Source: Trueperaceae bacterium | GTDB taxonomy: Bacteria > Deinococcota > Deinococci > Deinococcales > Trueperaceae | Length of the DNA: 64,000 bases | NCBI GenBank assembly: GCA_034521815.1 | Contig: JAXHLW010000013.1 | Coordinates: 224,001 to 288,000, forward strand | Direction: 5' to 3' | In this document: one piece after another, positions 227-61,073 of the stretch | Position numbering within the stretch: the stretch's first letter is position 1 | Layout of the letters: each line of letters opens with the position of its first letter | The notes under the pieces: model-generated | What the model saw: only the letters and a program-made list of their open reading frames with translations | What the model was told of the DNA's origin: nothing | Databases searched by the model: none | Translations under genes and position numbers: made by a program

Positions 227-346
227 TCCGTGGGTGCGCCATGGCACGACGGCCAGCACCCCCGGGGGCGAGGGCGGGCCGACGGGCGGCCGAGAGATCG
301 GCGCCTTGCGGTTCGCGGCTCGATGGTCGATGGATTTCGCTCGAAA

Positions 347-411
347 GAGCCGGTGCGCGTTCCGACATGGGATTCGGCGGAAACCCACGAGGTCGGAACG
401 TGCACCGGCTC
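347..411 (+). repeat. Long inverted repeat/hairpin
   Basis: GAGCCGGTGCGCGTTCCGAC (347-366) pairs with GTCGGAACGTGCACCGGCTC (392-411), one G-U; further inner pairing TGGG..CCCA. Confidence 0.8.
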
Positions 412-542
412 GTCCCGAGCATACGCCATGTCGCGGGCGAGCACCGTTCGGATGTCGGCCTCCCGTTCGCTCGCTCGCACGGTCCCCGACGCGGAGGCCC
501 TGACCTAGCCCCGTGGGCGGGTCACGCCGGTACGCTGCCCGC

Positions 543-15641: not shown

Positions 15642-16190
15642 TCAGCGGATGCCGGGAGGCACCTGGGTCGGCGGCGGCTCGGGCAGGTTGCGCGGCATGG
15701 GCACGCCCTCGAGCCGCTTCATCACGCCGTTCTCGTTGCAGCCCACGAAGAACGGGCAGCGCAGGCACTCCGACCACACCCGGGGGTGCAGCTCGCGGGT
15801 CTTGTCGATCAGGGTGAAGCCGCACGCCTCGAAGAAGCCCACTTCGTACGTCCAGGCGAACAGGACCGGCACGCCGATCCGCCGCGCCTCGGCCTCGCAG
15901 GCGGCCACCAGCGCCCGGCCCACGCCGCGTGCCCGGACGTCCTTCGCGACCGCCAAGCCGCGCACCTCGGCGATGTCGCCCCACAGCAGGTGCAGCGCGC
16001 CGTTGCCGGCGAAGGTGACGGTCCCGTCGTCGTCCACCACCTCGGCGACGAAGAAGTCGCGAAGGTTCTCGAAGATGTTCTGCATCGGCCGGACCAGCAT
16101 CCGGCTCTGCGACGCCCAGTAGCCGATGTTCTCGAAGATCGCCGGAACGTCCTCGGCGGTGGCGTGCCGGACCCGGACGTCGCCGCTCAC
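15642..16190 (-). CDS. Short GNAT N-acetyltransferase, ArgA-like (N-acetylglutamate synthase)
   Basis: ENLRDFFV, AEVRGLAV, GVGRALV and VWSECLRCP..CNE; GTGA-coupled to argH. Confidence 0.75.
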   Translation of the reverse strand: MSGDVRVRHATAEDVPAIFENIGYWASQSRMLVRPMQNIFENLRDFFVAEVVDDDGTVTFAGNGALHLLWGDIAEVRGLAVAKDVRARGVGRALVAACEAEARRIGVPVLFAWTYEVGFFEACGFTLIDKTRELHPRVWSECLRCPFFVGCNENGVMKRLEGVPMPRNLPEPPPTQVPPGIR

Positions 16191-17617
16191 CGCGGGCCGA
16201 CCGCGGCGCCGGCCTCGTCGCCGTCGACCTGGTCGGCGTCCAGCTCTCCTCGGAGCGCCTCGATCCGCTCGCGAACGCGGCTGGGCGCCGTCCCGCCCCA
16301 GCTGGTGCGCCCCGACACGACCGTCTCGAGCGCCAGCGCGTCGTACACGTCCGCCTCGATCCGCTCGTCCAGCGTCCGCATCTCGGCCAAGGGGAGCGCC
16401 TCGAGCGGCACGCCCCGCTCCAGCGCGGTGGCGACCATGCGGCCGACGACCTCGTGCGCGTCCCGGAACGGCAGCCCCTTCTTGGCGAGGTAGTCCGCCA
16501 GATCGGTCGCGTTGGAGTACGCCCCCGCTGCGGCGGCGCGCATGCGCTCTTCGTGCACCTCGAGCCGCGGGATCATCTCCGCCTGCAAGGTCAGGCAGGC
16601 GCGCAGCGTGGCGACGGCGTCGAACGCACCCTCCTTGTCCTCCTGCATGTCCTTGTTGTACGCCAGGGGAAGGCCCTTCATCACCGTCAGCAAGCCCATC
16701 AGCGCGCCGTAGACGCGGCCGGTCTTGCCGCGGATCAGCTCCGAGACGTCCGGGTTCTTCTTCTGCGGCATGATCGAGCTTCCCGTCGTGTGGCTGTCGG
16801 GAAGCGTGACGAAGCCGAACTCCTGCGACGACCAGAGGATCAGCTCCTCCGACATGCGGGACAGGTGCATCATCGCGATCGCCGCGGCCGAGAGGAACTC
16901 GAGCGCGAAGTCGCGATCGCTCACGGCGTCCAGCGAGTTCTCGGCCGGGCGGGCGAATCCCAGCAGCGAGGCGGTCCGGTGCCGGTCGATCGGGAAGGTC
17001 GTGCCCGCCAGGGCGCCCGCGCCCAGCGGCGAGACGTCCATCCGCGCGAGCGCGTCGCGCAGGCGGCCCTCGTCGCGCGCGAACATCTCCTGCCACGCCA
17101 GCAGGTGGTGCGAGAACAGGACGGGCTGGGCGACCTGGAGGTGGGTGTAGCCGGGCAGGATCACGCCCAGGTGCCGCTCGGCGGCGTCCACCAGGACCAC
17201 GCGGTTGCGGCGGACCAGGCGCAGCAGGACGCGCAGGTGCCGCCTGAGCCAGAGGCGGAAGTCCGTCGCGACCTGGTCGTTGCGGCTGCGGGCGGTGTGG
17301 AGCTTGCCGCCCACCGATCCCAGCCGCTCGGTGAGGGCCGACTCGAGGTTCATGTGGACGTCCTCGAGCGCCACGCTCCAGTCGAAGCGGTCCGCCTCGA
17401 CGTCGTCGCGAAGCTCCCCTAAGCCCCTCACCAGCGCCTCGGCCTCGTCGGGCGCGACGATTCCCGTCTCGCCCAACATCGTGGCGTGCGCGATCGAGCC
17501 TTCGAGATCGTCGAGCGCCATGGCGCGGTCGACGTCGATCGAGGCGTTGAACGCCTGCACCAGCAGGTCGGTGTCCTCCGCGAACCGTCCGCCCCACATC
17601 CGTTTCGGCACGCTCAC
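16187..17617 (-). CDS. argH: Argininosuccinate lyase
   Basis: MWGGRF, EDVH, RSRNDQVATD, PGYTHLQ and GSSIMPQKKNPD. Confidence 0.96.
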   Translation of the reverse strand: MSVPKRMWGGRFAEDTDLLVQAFNASIDVDRAMALDDLEGSIAHATMLGETGIVAPDEAEALVRGLGELRDDVEADRFDWSVALEDVHMNLESALTERLGSVGGKLHTARSRNDQVATDFRLWLRRHLRVLLRLVRRNRVVLVDAAERHLGVILPGYTHLQVAQPVLFSHHLLAWQEMFARDEGRLRDALARMDVSPLGAGALAGTTFPIDRHRTASLLGFARPAENSLDAVSDRDFALEFLSAAAIAMMHLSRMSEELILWSSQEFGFVTLPDSHTTGSSIMPQKKNPDVSELIRGKTGRVYGALMGLLTVMKGLPLAYNKDMQEDKEGAFDAVATLRACLTLQAEMIPRLEVHEERMRAAAAGAYSNATDLADYLAKKGLPFRDAHEVVGRMVATALERGVPLEALPLAEMRTLDERIEADVYDALALETVVSGRTSWGGTAPSRVRERIEALRGELDADQVDGDEAGAAVGPR

Positions 17618-18116
17618 GGCGCCGATCCGGGCTGACGCTGCCAGGTGCCGCCCACGCGTTTGGCCAGCTTCACGACGTCGCCGTCGCGCGACTCCTCGCG
17701 GTAGCCGAGGCGCTCGTAGTAGGGAAGCAGGTCGGGCTGGCGCAAGGTGAGGCGCAGCGTCGGGACGTTGCGCTTGATCGCCAGCGCTTCGAGCTTCGTC
17801 ATCAGCCAGCGGCCGAAGCCCTGTCCCCGGGCCTCGGGCAGCGTGGCGATGCGGTCGACGTCCCAGCCGTCCTGGCCCCAGCGCCAGCGCACGGCGCACT
17901 GCGGACGCCCCTCGGCGTTCTCGAGCAGAACCGCGCCGCCGTGCTCCAGCCAGTCGCGCATTCCGGCGGCGTCCTCGAGGGGCGCGTCCACGTCGTCCGC
18001 CTCGCGGCCGGTCCGCCACAGGCCGGCGAGCGGCTCGGCGTCCGCGGCGGCGGCCCAGCGCAACCGTGCCGCGTCGTAGGCGCGTCCGGAGCCGAGGTCG
18101 CCGGCACCGGCCGGGG

Positions 18117-18120
<4 letters not shown>
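17614..18120 (-). CDS. GNAT family acetyltransferase
   Basis: [18 protein letters not shown] and YYERLGY; coupled to argG and argH. Confidence 0.8.
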
Positions 18121-19334
<1,214 letters not shown>

Positions 19335-19404
19335 GGTTCCTCCATCACGAAGACGGCCCACGGACCCGTGGTCACGCAGACGACGGCGCCCGTGGGGAAC
19401 GGGG

Positions 19405-19449
19405 TCAGCGGCGTCGGGCGCGGAGCGGGGTGTGAGCCGGTAGGTTCAT
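19405..19449 (-). CDS. Putative arg operon leader peptide [14 protein letters not shown]
   Basis: ATG at 19449 to TGA at 19405; four Arg codons in the last five, 70 nt upstream of argG. Confidence 0.7.
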
Positions 19450-19462
19450 CGAAAAAGGGTCC

Positions 19463-19476
19463 TGCAAGCGTATGCA
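19463..19476. promoter_or_regulatory. ARG-box-like operator
   Basis: TGCATACGCTTGCA (minus strand), one mismatch to TGCAT-N4-ATGCA; upstream of argG. Confidence 0.6.
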
Positions 19477-19497
19477 AGCAGCGCGATAACGTTGCGC

Positions 19498-19526
19498 AAT
19501 GTAGCACCGGACTCGGGAGCGGTCAA
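19498..19526 (-). promoter_or_regulatory. sigma70 promoter of the arg operon
   Basis: TTGACC (19526-19521) - 17 nt - TACATT (19503-19498) with extended TGn. Confidence 0.7.
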
Positions 19527-20428
19527 GAGAGATCGGACCCCGCCAGCGGCGTTCTCCTGGGCCCCCTGGGGCGGATCCCGGACGCCGCGGCGCAGCCCAG
19601 CACCAACGCCGCCCCCGCCAGCCCCCAGGCGCCCAGCCGCTCGCCGTACAGCGCCCAGGCCAGCGCGCCGGCGACCAGCGGCTCGACCGTCGCGACCAGC
19701 ACGGCGCGCGACGCGGTCGCGCGCCGCAGCCCCAGGCCGTAGAGCAGGTAGGCGAGGTAGGTCGAGACGATCGCGGCGCCGGCCAGCAACGCCCAGGCCA
19801 GCGGCGGCTTGGCTCCCCACGTCACGAACGGCGCGATCCCGGCCGCGCCCAGCGGCAGCGCCAGTCCGTACAGCTGGACGGGCGCCTGCCGCACCAGCAG
19901 CCGCTTGCCCAACAGGTAGTAGCTCGCGTAGCCGAGCCCGGCGGCCAGCCCCCAGCCGATCGCCGCCGCCGAGGCGGTCACGCCCTCGCCGCGCGCCGAT
20001 GAGACCAGCGCCACGCCCACGACCGAGCCGCCGACCAACAGCCACTGACGCCGTCCCGGTCGCTCTCCCAGCACCGGACCCGCCAGCAGGGTCACCCACG
20101 CCGGTGCGGTGTACAGCAGCACGAACGCCAGGCTGATCCCGCCCAGATCGATCGCGCGGATCAGCGCGACGTAGAAAAGGCTCACGCCGACCGCGGCGAA
20201 GGCGACCGTCGCGAGACCGTTTCGCCACGGGAGCCGCACCAGCCGCCGAGCGGCGAGGGCGTGCGCCAGGAAGGCGCTTCCGCCGAACAGGGCCCGCCAG
20301 AACGCGATCTCGACCGCGCCGACCCCGAGGTCGAGCAGCCCGGCGGTGAACACGCCCAGCAGGCCCCACAGAATCGCGGCGGCCAGCACCAGCGCCAGGC
20401 CGATCGACTCGGCTCGGTCCTCGTTCAC
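19523..20428 (-). CDS. DMT/EamA family transporter
   Basis: About 10 TM helices; LYTAPAWV and ATVEPLVA. Confidence 0.88.
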   Translation of the reverse strand: MNEDRAESIGLALVLAAAILWGLLGVFTAGLLDLGVGAVEIAFWRALFGGSAFLAHALAARRLVRLPWRNGLATVAFAAVGVSLFYVALIRAIDLGGISLAFVLLYTAPAWVTLLAGPVLGERPGRRQWLLVGGSVVGVALVSSARGEGVTASAAAIGWGLAAGLGYASYYLLGKRLLVRQAPVQLYGLALPLGAAGIAPFVTWGAKPPLAWALLAGAAIVSTYLAYLLYGLGLRRATASRAVLVATVEPLVAGALAWALYGERLGAWGLAGAALVLGCAAASGIRPRGPRRTPLAGSDLS

Positions 20429-22743
20429 GCCTCGGACGTGGGGTCCCGCCTCGTCTCACGTTTCAGGTCGGCGGTCGCGTCGCGCTTCACCACGATCGGC
20501 TGAAGGCCGTACGACCTCGCCAGCTCCGGCCGCTGCTCGCGAAGCAGCCGCATGCGGCGCCGATAGCTGGCCGTCTCGACGGCGAAGCCGATCAGGTTCA
20601 AGGCCCAGAACGCGACGAGCAGCCCCGTTCGGAGGGCGGGCGACAGGCCCAGCGCGCCCTCCCCGGTGCGCCACGCCACGACCGCGTCGGCGGCGACCAG
20701 GGACCAGGGCACGAGCAGCATGAGCCCCCACAGCTCGTCGGCGTGGCCGCTGCCGGGCACCAGCAGCGCGCCGACGTGATACCCCACCGTCCTCGGCGCG
20801 TCGCGGGCGACGCGAGGCCGGGGGATCGCCACGAACGCCACGAGCGCCACGAGAAGCGAGGCGTACGTGATCAGGACCGCCCACCACCCCCAGGCGGGCA
20901 ACGCGAGCGGACGCGCCGCAGGAAGCGCGGACCATGGAGAGGTGGCGGCCCCGGACAGAGCGGATCGCCAGTCGCCCGCCACCGCCAGCCGCAGCTCCAG
21001 CGGCGTGGGGACCGACCAGAGCGGCGCGTCCGGCGTCATCGTGGCGTGGAACGGCGAAGGATCGTCCGTCCGCCCCAGGAGGTGCCGAGCGACCGGCTCG
21101 CGCGGGTCCGCTCGCAGGGCGGCCTCGAGCAGCTCCTCGTCCCCGCCGGCAGCGACCGCCCGGTTGGTGAGCGCCGGCGCCAAGGCGCCCGCGGCGAGCC
21201 ACGCCTCGCGCGCGGCGTCCGGCTCGCCGCGTTGCGCATGCGAGAGCCCCTTCACCAGCGCGGCGTACGCCGTGTCCGGCAGGGCCTCGGTCGCCAGGAT
21301 GGCGGACGGACTCGCCAACGTTCCCGACCGGAGCGAGACGGGCACCTCGTCCATGCCCTGATGCCAGCCGGCCAGAACCGCCTGGAAGCCCGCCAGCGCC
21401 AGGATGGCGACCAGCACCAGCTTCTCCGTGGTGCTGGCGTAGCGCGGCACCCAGGCCCGCGTCAGCGGGCTGTCGGTCCTGCCACGCTCGCGCCGCTGAC
21501 GGCGCAACAGCGACTGCGCGCGCCACACCTTGGCCAGCAGCACCAGCCACAGCAGCGCGAACACGGTCAGCAGCGCAGCGACCCCGCTCCAGCCCAGGCG
21601 AGCCAGGGCCAGGGCGAGCCGGTCCACCCACGTCGTCAGTCCGGCGCTGTCCAGCTCGCGTGCACGCTCGCGCCAGGTCTCGGCCGCCTCGCGGTCGCCG
21701 GCCGCGCGCAGCTCGTCGGCCAGGCGGTGGAGCGTCTCGACGCTGGCGGGGGCCTCTTCCGCCGCGAGGCGCCAAGCGTACGGACCCAGCAGGCGCGCCG
21801 ACGCCAGATCACCGTCGTCGAGGGCACCTTCGAGCGCTCGATCGGGAAAGCCGTAGGCGTCGCGCAGTGCGCGGTCGGTCGCGAGGCGTGGATCGTAGCC
21901 GCGCTCGGCGAGGTCCTGAAGCCCGGCCTCGAGCAGCTCCGGCGCCCGCTCCGGCACGCCCGCCTCGATCAGCGCCAGCGCCACCCCCATCGACTCGAAG
22001 AACGGCAGGCGCGAGGCCGCCTCGACCGAGCGCTCGAACCACGAGGCCCGCGCAGACGCGTCGTCCACGGCGCCTGCGGCGTACAGGGCGGCCCACGGAT
22101 CGGTGGGGTCGCGCTCGGCCCGCGCGACGGGATCCTCGGCGGCGGCCGCGGCGCGACGAAGCGCGCCGAACGCCGCGACGTCCGGATCGAAGCGCACCGG
22201 CGCCTGCACGCGACCGTCCTCGACGGCGAGCGTTGCCGAGCTGCCGTCCCTCAGAGCGACGACGACGGACACGTCGTCGGGTCCGACCTCGAGCCGCTCC
22301 GCCGTGGCGGGAAGGGGCGAGCGCTGCACGATGGCGCCGTCGTCCGCGGCGAGGGTGATCAGGTACGGCCCCTGACCCACCAGGACTCGACCGTTTCGTC
22401 GGAGCGGGGTCGTCATGTCGCCGGCGAGCTCGCCCGGTGCCCAGGTCCAGCGCACCCCGTCCGCATCCCTGAGCACGAGGGCGCCGTCCTCCAGGGCCGC
22501 GGTCGGAGCGTCGACGGCGTCGTCCTCCGGCAGCGGACCGTTCTCCTGCGGCGTGGCCGAGGTGTCCGGCGACGTCTGGGGCGCCGGCTGGCGAGAGCTC
22601 GGATCGACCGGTCCAGGCTGGGCGAGCGCTCCGCTCAGAACCGCCGCGACCAGAACCGCAGCGGCCAGGAACGCGAGGCTCGCGCGGTCGGCGAGCCACC
22701 GAAGGGGTGCGAGGCGAACGGGGAAACGCAGAGACGGCGCCAT
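20425..22743 (-). CDS. Large hypothetical membrane protein (helical repeats, several TMs)
   Basis: 772-aa ORF with N-terminal signal/TM, helical TPR-like regions and C-terminal TMs; coding-like codon usage. Confidence 0.75.
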   Translation of the reverse strand: MAPSLRFPVRLAPLRWLADRASLAFLAAAVLVAAVLSGALAQPGPVDPSSRQPAPQTSPDTSATPQENGPLPEDDAVDAPTAALEDGALVLRDADGVRWTWAPGELAGDMTTPLRRNGRVLVGQGPYLITLAADDGAIVQRSPLPATAERLEVGPDDVSVVVALRDGSSATLAVEDGRVQAPVRFDPDVAAFGALRRAAAAAEDPVARAERDPTDPWAALYAAGAVDDASARASWFERSVEAASRLPFFESMGVALALIEAGVPERAPELLEAGLQDLAERGYDPRLATDRALRDAYGFPDRALEGALDDGDLASARLLGPYAWRLAAEEAPASVETLHRLADELRAAGDREAAETWRERARELDSAGLTTWVDRLALALARLGWSGVAALLTVFALLWLVLLAKVWRAQSLLRRQRRERGRTDSPLTRAWVPRYASTTEKLVLVAILALAGFQAVLAGWHQGMDEVPVSLRSGTLASPSAILATEALPDTAYAALVKGLSHAQRGEPDAAREAWLAAGALAPALTNRAVAAGGDEELLEAALRADPREPVARHLLGRTDDPSPFHATMTPDAPLWSVPTPLELRLAVAGDWRSALSGAATSPWSALPAARPLALPAWGWWAVLITYASLLVALVAFVAIPRPRVARDAPRTVGYHVGALLVPGSGHADELWGLMLLVPWSLVAADAVVAWRTGEGALGLSPALRTGLLVAFWALNLIGFAVETASYRRRMRLLREQRPELARSYGLQPIVVKRDATADLKRETRRDPTSEA

Positions 22744-22834
22744 TCCTCACGGTACCGCACGGGCGCAGGCGGACCGTGGTCGGCTGGCCCTCCGCAGCCG
22801 AGCCCCGCCGAGGTCGACTGCTATACTCCGCTCG

Positions 22835-23683
22835 ATGTCCGACCGCTCCTGGTCCTCCTTGTCGGCGCCGTTTCCGTTGTCGAGCGTGCGCTGGCACGCC
22901 GTCGACCGAAGCCACGATGGACGCCTCGTCCGGCTGGCCCCGCACCTCGCCACCGACGCCCTCCGCGCTCGCTTGGACGAGGGGGCGGGGCCCGACGCCT
23001 GGTCGCTCACGCTCCGGGCCTGGGGCGACGACGCGTTGATCGCCGAGCTCGCGTTTCTCGGCGCCTCGGGCGCGAGCGTCTCCAGGGCGGTGGTGTCACG
23101 CGCGCTGAAGCTGCCCGCCCTGGCGGGAGCGGACGGCGTCGGATCGGTGAGCGCGGCGGACGCCACGACGGGCGCCGCCTGGACGGCGGCCGCAGCCGCG
23201 TTCGGCGCGACGGTGCCGATCGAGGTTCTCGACGACGGCTGGGTCGACGCCGACCCGGAGAGCGGCGAGGGCCTGCACCCGCCCGAGCACGGCGCGGCCA
23301 GCGAGGGGGTCGCGCCCCGCCAGGACGGCGCTTCTCGCCAGGACGGCGCGCGACGGGCGGCGCACGACGACGGTGCCGACGCGTCGCCGACACGACCGAC
23401 CTCTCCGCCGACAGCGCAGGGCGCATCGCAGGGGTCCGGCGCCAGCGGATCCGGCGGGACCGGATCCGGCGGGACCGGATCCGGCAGCGCCGAGATCGCC
23501 GACAAGCCGGACGGCCACCAGGTGATCGATCGCCTCGTCGAGCGCCTCCGCCAGGAAGGGCTTGGCGCCGACGCGGCCCGGCTCGTCACGAGCTACGGCG
23601 GCTACGGCGGCGACGCCGAGGCCAGCCGCGAGCTGTACGCGAAGCTCAGGGCCCTGCTGGTCCAACGGAGCGCCCGGCCGTGA
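22835..23683 (+). CDS. Rad52/Rad22 (DdrA-like) family protein, divergent
   Basis: LSAPFP..VRW and ARLDE..GPDAW N-terminus; C-terminal KPDGHQVIDRLVERL..YGGYG..ELYAKLRALL; TATACT -10 at 22822-22827. Confidence 0.7.
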   Translation: MSDRSWSSLSAPFPLSSVRWHAVDRSHDGRLVRLAPHLATDALRARLDEGAGPDAWSLTLRAWGDDALIAELAFLGASGASVSRAVVSRALKLPALAGADGVGSVSAADATTGAAWTAAAAAFGATVPIEVLDDGWVDADPESGEGLHPPEHGAASEGVAPRQDGASRQDGARRAAHDDGADASPTRPTSPPTAQGASQGSGASGSGGTGSGGTGSGSAEIADKPDGHQVIDRLVERLRQEGLGADAARLVTSYGGYGGDAEASRELYAKLRALLVQRSARP

Positions 23684-24429
23684 TCAAGGTCGTCGCGGTC
23701 GGAGACGTCCACGGCATGTGGGCCGAGCTGTGGCGCGTGCTCAAGGCGTCGGCTGCGGCCACGCCGCAGTACGAGCCCAGTCCGGCCGTCGTCGAGGGCC
23801 GGGTCCAAGTGGTGTGCGTGGGCGACCTGGTGCACTTCAAGGACGAGCGGGCGTACGCCAACGCCGTCGGCGTCGAGCCGTTCGATGCATCGAACCCCGA
23901 CCACCTGCGTCGCGCGGCGAAGGCCCAGATCCGAGAGCTGTACCGCTTCAAGCGGTTCGTCGAGGCCGCAGGCGGCAACGTCCAGATCGTCCTCGGGAAT
24001 CACGACGACGCGGCGATGCGGCACGAGTACGAGCTCAGCACACGCGGAGGCTTGCGCCACGTCGAGTTCGATCCGTCGCACGGAGGGCTGGCGTTGCCCG
24101 ACGATCTGGCCGAGTGGTTCGCGAGCTTCCCGAGGGACGTACGGTTCCACGGCGTTCAGTTCGCGCACGCCGGCCCGACGCCCGGTATGCAGCAGTTCGA
24201 CGATTTCTTCTATCACGACCCCGATACGAAGTCGTGGTGGTACGAGAAGCCGGAGCTCGTCAAGCTGTCGGGGCACCGCTTCGGGGTGTACGGCCACACC
24301 GTCATGACCGACGGGATCTACGTCGACCGCGAGCACGGCTTCGCCATGATCGACGCCCTGGCGCACCTGCAGTTCCTCGAGATGTTTCTCGACGACGATC
24401 GCTTGGACTACAGCATCAGTCGGATCTGA
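23680..24429 (+). CDS. Calcineurin-like metallophosphoesterase
   Basis: GDVHG, GDLVH, GNHD, HAG and GHT motifs. Confidence 0.88.
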   Translation: MIKVVAVGDVHGMWAELWRVLKASAAATPQYEPSPAVVEGRVQVVCVGDLVHFKDERAYANAVGVEPFDASNPDHLRRAAKAQIRELYRFKRFVEAAGGNVQIVLGNHDDAAMRHEYELSTRGGLRHVEFDPSHGGLALPDDLAEWFASFPRDVRFHGVQFAHAGPTPGMQQFDDFFYHDPDTKSWWYEKPELVKLSGHRFGVYGHTVMTDGIYVDREHGFAMIDALAHLQFLEMFLDDDRLDYSISRI

Positions 24430-54676: not shown

Positions 54677-54732
54677 CCGCAGGCAGCGAGCCTCGTCGCC
54701 CGGGCAGGGCGGCGACGTCCGTGCCCCAAGTG

Positions 54733-54764
54733 CGACGCTCGGCCCTGTTCGGGGCCGAGCGTCG
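54733..54764 (+). terminator. Hairpin downstream of rpmB
   Basis: CGACGCTCGGCCCT-GTTC-GGGGCCGAGCGTCG followed by TTCGT. Confidence 0.55.
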
Positions 54765-54889
54765 TTCGTGGCGTGGTCCGTGTCGGAGCTCGTCATATCC
54801 GTTTCATGACAGCGCGATCTCGATACTGGTCGTGTAGCGACGGTCGTGCACGCCGGCCCGATGGAAGCTGGACATGATTCTGGCTGTAC

Positions 54890-59789: not shown

Positions 59790-61073
59790 TCAGAGCAGTC
59801 GAGCGACGATGCGGGCTCCCGCGAGCCAGGTGCCCAGGGCCGACCCCAGCGTCGCGCCGAAGAACACCAGCAGCGTGCGTGCGACCCTGTTCGTGTACCA
59901 GCCGCGAAGCTTCGTCGCGTCGCTGCGCAAGGTCGCGAAGTCGCCCACGCTGGGCTTGCGGCGCCACAGCTCCAAGGCCGCGGCGACGAAGCCGGCACCG
60001 ATCGTCGGATTCAGACTGGTGAGGGGGGCGGCGAGGGCGGTACCCACCACCGTCACGGGATGCGCGGCCGCCACCATCGCTCCGATCGCAGACGCGACGC
60101 CGTTGATCCAGAACCAGTCGCCGATCAGCTGGCGGCCGAGCTCCGGATCGCGAAGGAACCCGATCGCGAAGCCGCTCAGGACCAGCGCGACGATCGCCCA
60201 CGGAAGGGCGCGCACGACGAGCGAGGCCGGCGGCACCGTGGACAGCTGCTCGATGGCGGCCTGAGGGTCTTCCTCCGAGGCCTCGCTCAGCGCGGTGCGC
60301 ATCCCGCTCAGGTGACCGGCGCCGATGATCGCGAGGATCGGGTCGGGCGTCTCGCCCGCCGCCTTCGCCTCCTGCGCGATCCTCTCGGCCTCCTGCCGGA
60401 TGCGTGCCGCCATGAACGTGTCGCGCTCGGCGATCAACGGCTGGTACAAGCGCTCGGAGCGCTCGGCGAACTCGGCGAACGTCGCCTCGAGCACGTCGCC
60501 GTCCTTGAGTCGCTCGATCTCCTCCTCCGAGATCTGCTCGCGGGAGAGGACGCTGGCGACCAGCCCGGCCATCAGCTCCAACCTGCGCCACCACGGCACG
60601 TTCCGGTACACGCGCCGCAGCGTCACGCCGATGTCGCGGTCGATCAGCAGAAGCGGAAGGTCGGCCTCCTTGGCGGCGGCGATCGCGTCGCGCATCTCCT
60701 GCCCCGGCTCGATCCCGTACTGGTCCGCGAGGCGCTGCTGGAACGCACCGAGCGCCAGGTTCGCGGCCATCGCGCCGGCCTGCCCGCGACGGATCACGGT
60801 GAACAGATCGGTCTTCAGCATGCGGTCGGGATCCACCAAGCCCGCATGGCGCGAGGCGTCCAGCTCGATCGCGACCGTTCCGTACTCGCCCGAGGCGATC
60901 CGGGCGCGGACCTCGTCCGCGCTGGCCCGCGATACGTGGGCCGTTCCCAGGAGCGTCACCGGCACGCCGTGCACCAGGACGGTCGCCGAGGGGCCACCGG
61001 CCCCGTCCGGGGCGGGCCGCTCCGTGGCTTCGCCGGGCGCCTGGCCCGGTGCGTGCAGGGGGTCGGTGTCCAT
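59790..61073 (-). CDS. TraB/PrgY family protein
   Basis: LLGTAHVS, IDRDI.VTL.R, ERDTFMA, GAGHLSG and LTSLNPTIGAG. Confidence 0.9.
   Translation of the reverse strand: MDTDPLHAPGQAPGEATERPAPDGAGGPSATVLVHGVPVTLLGTAHVSRASADEVRARIASGEYGTVAIELDASRHAGLVDPDRMLKTDLFTVIRRGQAGAMAANLALGAFQQRLADQYGIEPGQEMRDAIAAAKEADLPLLLIDRDIGVTLRRVYRNVPWWRRLELMAGLVASVLSREQISEEEIERLKDGDVLEATFAEFAERSERLYQPLIAERDTFMAARIRQEAERIAQEAKAAGETPDPILAIIGAGHLSGMRTALSEASEEDPQAAIEQLSTVPPASLVVRALPWAIVALVLSGFAIGFLRDPELGRQLIGDWFWINGVASAIGAMVAAAHPVTVVGTALAAPLTSLNPTIGAGFVAAALELWRRKPSVGDFATLRSDATKLRGWYTNRVARTLLVFFGATLGSALGTWLAGARIVARLL

Follow-up and report, generated by a model that had tools for sequence, protein, structure and literature searches.

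A candidate arginine-sensing leader peptide upstream of the argG-GNAT-argH operon of a Trueperaceae bacterium

We analyzed a 64,000-nt stretch of Trueperaceae DNA (referred to here as the window; 71.9% GC). This report concerns the leader of its argG gene, where a short arginine-rich open reading frame (ORF) lies ahead of a structure predicted to hide the argG ribosome-binding site (RBS). All features of the leader are on the minus strand. The argG gene, which encodes argininosuccinate synthase (405 amino acids), occupies positions 18117 to 19334 (minus strand) and matched NCBIfam model NF001770 at 609 bits, against a cut-off of 334. It starts at the ATG at 19334, with a GGAGG sequence ending 4 nt before it, and a protein search showed that the nearest ArgG relatives are likewise 405 amino acids long and begin at the same Met. 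Downstream on the same strand lie a gene for a GNAT acetyltransferase (17614 to 18120), whose GTG start overlaps the argG stop codon (GTGA), and argH, encoding argininosuccinate lyase (16187 to 17617; TIGR00838, 624 bits). The start of argH is either the GTG at 17617, which overlaps the stop codon of the GNAT gene, or the ATG at 17599 (MWGGRF). The GNAT gene is placed between argG and argH with 4-nt GTGA overlaps on both sides (18120-18117 and 17617-17614), and argG-GNAT-argH is an operon. Upstream of argG, a gene for an EamA-type transporter (19523-20428, minus strand; TIGR00950, 93 bits, below the cut-off) ends in a TGA at 19525-19523, and a spacer of 188 nt separates the transporter gene from argG.

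A sigma-70-like promoter, TTGACC-17-TACATT with an extended -10 TG, is found at 19498 to 19526 (minus strand), and its -35 box contains the stop codon of the transporter gene. An earlier reading made from the letters alone (the sequence-only reading) had placed this promoter upstream of an arginine-rich mini-ORF, and our scan found it as the sole promoter-like site between 19200 and 19700, where shuffled sequences gave 0.1. Transcription is predicted to start at ~19492, which would leave a leader of ~158 nt before argG. The mini-ORF itself consists of 14 codons plus a stop (19405 to 19449, minus strand; ATG 19449-19447, TGA 19407-19405); it follows the promoter, reads in the sense direction, and ends 70 nt before argG. 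Four of its last five codons specify Arg, one of them being CGA, just as the sequence-only reading had reported: codons 10 (CGC, 19422-19420), 12 (CGA, 19416-19414), 13 (CGC, 19413-19411), and 14 (CGC, 19410-19408). CGA accounts for 57 of 818 Arg codons (7%), which makes it uncommon without being the rarest. The sole Shine-Dalgarno-like core ahead of the mini-ORF is AGGA (19460 to 19463, minus strand), 10 nt upstream of its ATG, and the mini-ORF start falls where the leader is poorest in GC (40%, versus 72% for the window).

The expectation for such an ORF was assessed with 5000 dinucleotide shuffles of the 188-nt spacer, in which ATG mini-ORFs of 8 to 40 codons were scored. A mini-ORF of any kind appeared in 31.9% of the shuffled spacers and one with at least three Arg codons in five appeared in 6.4%, while mini-ORFs with at least four Arg codons in five were seen in 39 of the 5000 (0.78%). 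Because Arg runs are frequent in this GC-rich DNA, we set the chance figure for an Arg-rich mini-ORF in this leader at about 0.01 to 0.03.

Rho loading sites consist of C-rich, G-poor, unstructured RNA. The sense strand of the leader holds a C-rich, G-poor stretch at 19382 to 19459 (minus strand; 39 C versus 17 G in 78 nt), a candidate Rho loading (rut) region, within which positions 19451-19392 hold 32 C and 12 G. When both strands of the 64 kb were considered, only 0.019% of 60-nt windows and 0.005% of 78-nt windows reached that C-over-G skew, and the peak was tied among the top 5 of 177 (60 nt) and the top 3 of 62 (78 nt). Moreover, the RNA between the predicted transcription start and the mini-ORF stop (19492-19405) was predicted to be unstructured (z of +0.57 relative to shuffles). 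The C-over-G skew and the predicted lack of structure suggest that the mini-ORF stretch would fit a Rho loading site. Features of Rho sites are also discussed in PMC6386406.

Downstream of the mini-ORF, the leader is predicted to fold into three helices (19336 to 19400, minus strand). P1 pairs GUUCC (19400-19396) with GGAAC (19340-19336), P2 pairs CCACGGGC (19395-19388) with GUCCGUGG (19365-19358), its inner pairs being CCGU/ACGG and GUC/GAC, and P3 pairs CCGUC (19356-19352) with GAUGG (19346-19342). P3 takes up one part of the argG GGAGG (19343-19339) and P1 the other. The sequence-only reading had proposed that CCGTC-TTCGT-GATGG (19356-19342) covers the beginning of this GGAGG, and the prediction agrees: the hairpin has a stability of -5.1 kcal/mol, and P3 covers the first two G residues. 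At 37 C, the five bases of GGAGG were paired with probabilities of 0.99, 0.99, 0.01, 0.75, and 0.96. The 67 nt from 4 nt past the mini-ORF stop to the argG ATG (19401-19335) folded at -36.5 kcal/mol, with this structure making up 69% of the ensemble, and the fold did not change between 30 and 60 C. None of 200 shuffles was as stable (z of -3.43). In the 64 kb as a whole, 611 of 18,268 windows of 67 nt equaled its stability (3.3%), and when the comparison was restricted to the 9268 windows whose GC content matched to within 3 points, it fell in the lowest 0.65%.

The sequence-only reading had also pointed to pairings in this region. CCCACGG (19396-19390) and CCGTGGG (19363-19357) do form an exact inverted repeat; the expected number of exact 7+7 pairings per window is 0.02. 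A second arm, CCACGG (19371-19366), is also an exact repeat partner of CCGTGG (19363-19358), but the loop between the two is only 2 nt, and this pairing cannot form in full. The two arms were not predicted to act as alternative hairpins, as had been suggested; instead, the first forms P2 with CCGTGGG and the second pairs with CCGU inside P2. Separately, CCACGGGTCCGTGGG was considered as a repeated element and rejected, with 12 matches at up to 3 mismatches versus 9 expected.

The reading that we favor is a Rho-dependent, arginine-sensing leader peptide ahead of argG-GNAT-argH. In this model, the three genes would be transcribed from the promoter at 19526-19498 behind the ~158-nt leader, and the 14-codon ORF would act as the arginine-sensing leader peptide. 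Ribosomes would load at the AU-rich start (AGGA, 10 nt, AUG) and translate the stretch that is C-rich and unstructured. A shortage of charged tRNA-Arg would make them stall on CGA-CGC-CGC just before the stop codon; a stalled ribosome would stay on the C-rich RNA and shield it from Rho, and RNA polymerase would read into argG. When arginine is plentiful, the ribosome would finish and leave, and the naked C-rich leader would let Rho end transcription early. The RBS-hiding structure, which begins 4 nt after the stop codon, may provide a second, translational layer, with a ribosome at the stop codon reaching P1. Translation of the mini-ORF, stalling, the action of Rho, and the direction of the response are all things that we infer. 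The Rho-dependent model fits both the anatomy of the leader and the sign that a biosynthetic operon needs, and we put it forward tentatively, as possible rather than probable. For an arginine-sensing leader peptide working by any mechanism, our confidence is somewhat greater, a little short of even.

Several known systems provide parallels. As in the trpL, hisL, leuL, thrL, and pheL leaders of proteobacteria, the leader carries a short ORF whose cognate codons cluster near its end, followed by GC-rich pairings; unlike trp/his-type leaders, this one has neither an intrinsic terminator nor a predicted terminator/antiterminator pair. In the tna operon of Escherichia coli, a ribosome near the stop codon of the upstream ORF (uORF) tnaC decides whether Rho loads on the adjacent C-rich RNA. 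The leader described here resembles tnaC and mgtL, the latter a case of Rho-dependent leader-peptide control cited in PMC6386406, in that a C-over-G-rich and poorly structured stretch of RNA overlaps the uORF and its stop codon and that no hairpin-plus-U terminator would be needed. It differs in that the signal would be the charging of tRNA-Arg and not free tryptophan or proline/Mg2+. For the signal itself, two bacterial uORFs offer parallels. According to PMC6386406, the orf34 leader of Salmonella speF senses arginine through consecutive Arg codons, and its translation counteracts Rho and unfolds an RBS-hiding structure; orf34 has 34 codons in a 516-nt leader, governs a polyamine gene, and acts partly via RNase G decay. 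Here, the target would be arginine biosynthesis itself, and no relation to orf34 in sequence was found, although none was looked for. In Staphylococcus aureus rbfL, as described in PMC13009471, Arg codons in a uORF pause ribosomes when arginine is scarce and act on downstream initiation, and the codons are the rare AGA and AGG, occupancy blocks the RBS, and the gene is turned off on starvation. In contrast, the mini-ORF has three CGC codons and one CGA, lies 70 nt from argG, and would need the opposite sign. Bacterial uORFs that sense Arg codons exist in speF orf34 and rbfL, and by analogy they may be counted in favor of a sensor. Finally, cognate-codon leader ORFs that lack classical terminators are described for cysteine in mycobacteria (10.1101/834739).

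A number of results weigh against a sensing leader. The scan found no intrinsic terminator after the mini-ORF, and the longest T run in 19405-19335 is 2. The absence of a U-tract, which the sequence-only reading had remarked on, accordingly holds downstream of the mini-ORF; upstream of its ATG, however, there is a run of five T residues (T5, 19456-19452). No mutually exclusive terminator and antiterminator pairings were predicted, only two global folds, neither of which is a terminator. With no terminator present, the sequence itself excludes a mechanism of the classical trp type. The leader as a whole was no more stable than shuffles (z of -1.05), nor was the portion from the mini-ORF start to argG (19449-19335; z of -0.93). 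The Shine-Dalgarno sequence of the mini-ORF is weak (a 4-nt core at 10 nt), and 20 of 159 chance mini-ORFs (12.6%) have such a core. Of its four Arg codons, three are CGC, which makes up 50% of Arg codons and is the most used of them. Seven of the 159 ATG mini-ORFs in the whole window have at least four Arg codons in five, as do 4 of the 41 (the target included) in stretches left unannotated. The C-over-G peak ties with others that are mostly antisense strands of genes.

Modeling of ribosome positions, which was thermodynamic only, bears on the same question. Masks were placed with the ribosome at the start codon, with the A site at codon 10, 12, 13, or 14, and at the stop codon, and the free leader was folded for comparison. 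The free leader favored a long irregular duplex (-62.2 kcal/mol) between the ORF, its AUG included, and the region downstream, with the argG GGAGG paired to CCUUU (19458-19454). When a ribosome was masked on the mini-ORF, the local P1-P3 fold replaced this duplex. Folding with and without the ribosome was a check that the sequence-only reading had proposed. The mean pairing of the argG GGAGG was 0.69 to 0.88 in every modeled state, none of which freed it; for masks at codons 10, 12, 13, and 14 and at the stop codon, the mean was 0.69 to 0.85, and the per-base pairing of the Shine-Dalgarno sequence was 0.6 to 0.98 with the ribosome at any Arg codon or at the stop codon. With a narrower mask, whose edge lay 10 nt past the first nucleotide of the codon in the A site, P1-P3 stayed intact for stalls at codons 12 and 13, and only the last codon or the stop codon touched P1. 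If P1 were reached from the stop codon alone, the response would have the wrong sign. In ermC and cat, stalling depends on a drug and on the peptide, and the stalled ribosome opens a hairpin. The argG Shine-Dalgarno sequence is likewise predicted to be hidden in a stable structure by a leader ORF, but the modeled stalled ribosomes failed to open it and left the binding site paired. Taken together with the anatomy, the arginine-attenuator reading finds partial support in the rarity of the Arg-rich ORF, the C-over-G excess, and the stable RBS-hiding fold, and the specific mechanism sketched for it was not borne out by the modeled stalls, which leave the RBS paired. The observation is confirmed and its interpretation is partly supported, from a single sequence.

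Comparison with other argG loci gave points both for and against a sensor. A scan with ArgG returned at least 597 relatives (600 stretches), and the best 80, from Acidimicrobiia, proteobacteria, and others, most of them in genomes of lower GC content, were 59 to 67% identical. For the strict count, we considered ATG starts up to 200 nt upstream of argG in the 78 loci whose upstream sequence extended to 200 nt or more and left out 2 shorter loci. A mini-ORF of some kind was present in 50 of the 78; at least three Arg codons in five were seen in 2, one of which was the tail of an 823-codon frame, and at least four in five were seen in none, which counts in favor of a function for the mini-ORF. 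With a looser count (ATG, GTG, or TTG starts, at least three Arg codons in five, within 350 nt), 26 of the 80 loci were positive, and these were rejected as a shared Arg uORF: they were mostly C-terminal tails of upstream genes and were not common to related loci. No Arg-rich uORF was common to the distant argG loci among these best 80 of at least 597 relatives, a point against a sensor. Queries with the EamA-type transporter and the GNAT protein (tblastn, E of up to 1e-3) also gave no matches in the best 80 loci. A search of a plasmid collection (tblastn) yielded no Deinococcota argG among the 25 records listed of 113, the best identity being 61%.

As a proxy within closer relatives, residues 1 to 70 of the argG frame read through the leader were searched against proteins. 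The closest ArgG proteins (P0001-P0008; 94 to 97% identical there) begin at the same Met and are uninformative on the leader. Close relatives are evident in P0001-P0009, P0016, and P0030. Fourteen longer proteins have unrelated N-terminal extensions, save for a GSVGR sequence shared with P0120 (an ArgG that is 76% identical); this candidate was rejected, as the local alignment of the extensions was not significant (p of 0.12 to 0.14 by shuffling). One pattern met during these scans is of separate interest. In five gammaproteobacterial loci (L009, L020, L036, L060, and L072), the upstream gene ends in a conserved ...NRRVTIRLERE tail that mimics Arg-rich mini-ORFs, and C-termini of this type are a trap for uORF scans.

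The alternative that survives best is that the mini-ORF is a by-product of C/G-rich sequence and that the structured 5' untranslated region (UTR) is itself the functional element. P1-P3 could set a low basal level of argG translation, or temperature, a small RNA, or a protein could open it, and any arginine control would be exerted by a DNA-binding repressor. Within the leader, a significant fold was confined to the 67-nt RBS-hiding element, a ribosome modeled on the mini-ORF failed to free the RBS at every position, and Arg runs occur in 4 to 10% of chance mini-ORFs in this DNA. Arg operons are usually under the control of ArgR, and symmetric DNA motifs overlap the promoter here. An imperfect palindrome, ACATTGCGCAACGT (19489 to 19502, minus strand; 14 bp, 6 of 7 pairs), which holds the perfect TTGCGCAA, spans the -10 box and the predicted transcription start and is a possible operator in a classical repressor position. 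A direct repeat, GCTTGCA-TAC-GCTTGCA (19463 to 19479, minus strand), with a 10-nt period, lies between the promoter and the mini-ORF, the second of the positions where a repressor would classically act. Against this alternative, neither motif recurred above chance in the window: the palindrome had 8 matches at up to 3 mismatches versus 3.7 expected, giving no sign of a regulon motif, and the GCTTGCA repeat did no better. The E. coli-type ARG box, an 18-bp palindrome, had no matches at up to 3 mismatches in the 64 kb, although the box of this lineage may differ. A search of Rfam families, including T-boxes, riboswitches, and leaders, gave a tRNA as the sole gathering-level match in the window and, between 19200 and 19700, a single match at E of up to 10, which was noise (13.2 bits versus a gathering score of 59). 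A structured UTR also leaves to coincidence an Arg-rich ORF on the sense strand (0.78% of shuffles, none of the 78 loci) whose stop codon is 4 nt from the structure. We consider this alternative possible, give it a modest weight, and place it only a little below the sensor reading in likelihood.

A second alternative, that the spacer is ordinary apart from its promoter and that nothing regulatory is encoded there, would attribute the ORF, the C-rich stretch, and the hairpins to composition effects in 72% GC DNA. The ordinary fold of the whole leader and the presence of similar Arg-rich mini-ORFs and C-over-G peaks elsewhere in the window agree with this explanation, as does the ease with which GC-rich DNA gives alternative pairings (a 261-nt stretch contains 14 inverted repeats of 6 nt or longer). 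A terminator-like site also lies between the promoter and the mini-ORF. The direct-repeat region (19482-19461) can fold as a weak hairpin (-8.7 kcal/mol), which is followed by ACCC and then by T5 (19456-19452), upstream of the mini-ORF ATG, and the scan flagged this as terminator-like. If nothing regulatory is encoded here, the hairpin and T5 (19478-19452) may mark the end of the transporter transcript; more broadly, the region from 19452 to 19479 could be an operator, the end of that transcript, or the initiation region of the mini-ORF. As an attenuator or a terminator of the transporter gene, however, the hairpin was rejected as weak, with ACCC separating the stem from the T run. Moreover, this alternative requires several independent oddities to fall together in a single spacer of ~190 nt before the only arg operon of the window: an ORF seen in 0.78% of shuffles, a fold whose stability is reached by 0.65% of GC-matched windows, and a 7+7 pairing expected 0.02 times per window. 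We regard a spacer without regulatory function as unlikely.

Translational attenuation alone, the option that the sequence-only reading named first, in which a stalled or pausing ribosome would melt P1 and free the argG RBS with no termination of transcription, is improbable: the structure does begin 4 nt after the stop codon, a mask at the last Arg codon or the stop codon does remove P1 from the predicted fold, and no terminator is present, but P3 persists and other C/U-rich partners step in, such that the Shine-Dalgarno sequence stays 0.6 to 0.98 paired per base, the narrower mask leaves P1-P3 intact for codons 12 and 13, and a ribosome at the stop codon, which represents the arginine-replete state, would give more argG, the wrong sign for a biosynthetic operon. 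The thermodynamic model lends no support to a purely translational switch, and such a switch, read at face value, would respond with the wrong sign.

The surroundings of the operon were also surveyed. Among the window ORFs scanned, there were no other genes for arginine biosynthesis; argR was not seen among the window genes scanned, and no rho gene was seen in the window. The GNAT gene gave weak NCBIfam matches (31 bits versus a cut-off of 124). Its position agrees with that of a short gene for an N-acetylglutamate-synthase-like acetyltransferase which, according to PMC1382215, adjoins argH in Thermus and Deinococcus, in or beside the argG/argH cluster and in differing order. The labels of the ArgG relatives P0016, P0030, and P0041 ("Trueperaceae bacterium") and the 94 to 97% identity of the closest proteins over the N-terminal part searched make assignment of this DNA to the Trueperaceae lineage reasonable. 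The argG frame remains open for 37 codons upstream of the ATG (19335-19445, minus strand), with an in-frame GTG at 19361; judging from the closest relatives (405 amino acids, same Met), this extension is noncoding, and gene callers could over-extend argG into it. Farther upstream, two long ORFs overlap on opposite strands (20425-22746, minus, 773 amino acids; 20743-24429, plus, 1228 amino acids). Neither had an NCBIfam match, and GC content at third codon positions was higher in the minus-strand ORF (0.89) than in the plus-strand one. Across the 64 kb, 67-nt windows reached their greatest stability (-50 to -47 kcal/mol) at 54699-54765 (plus), between pyrE and a gene for the binding protein of a zinc ABC transporter, and at 346-412 (both strands), 23439-23505 (minus), and 60985-61051 (plus); these could be terminators, palindromic elements, or structured RNAs.

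To our knowledge, arginine belongs to a small group of amino acids for which control of the biosynthetic operons is ascribed almost entirely to a protein repressor. The literature that we searched, which did not extend to subscription papers, described no leader peptide before an arginine-biosynthesis operon, and the literature searched on Arg leaders or on ArgR in Thermus and Deinococcus contained no description of this element. According to a survey of Actinobacteria (PMC1262725), arginine operons there are not preceded by a conserved RNA element. It is possible, though less likely than not, that the leader described here is the first leader-peptide sensor before an arginine-biosynthesis operon, one that would read tRNA-Arg charging by shielding a Rho site, with no intrinsic terminator and joined to an RBS-hiding structure. 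If real, a cognate-codon leader peptide is of a known kind and not a new one. If the ORF is due to chance, it serves as a warning: Arg-rich mini-ORFs and alternative hairpins arise easily in 72% GC DNA, and candidates of this sort therefore need evidence of conservation. If the sensor reading is true, the leader would offer a compact part (~160 nt) for making expression respond to arginine in hosts that are thermotolerant or high in GC. It would also mean that ribosome-based sensing of tRNA charging has been recruited for arginine too and is workable without a hairpin-plus-U terminator. Ribosome-mediated attenuation would then extend to an amino acid and a phylum for which the literature searched contained no reports, and it would occur in Deinococcota, where regulation at the RNA level has been little explored.

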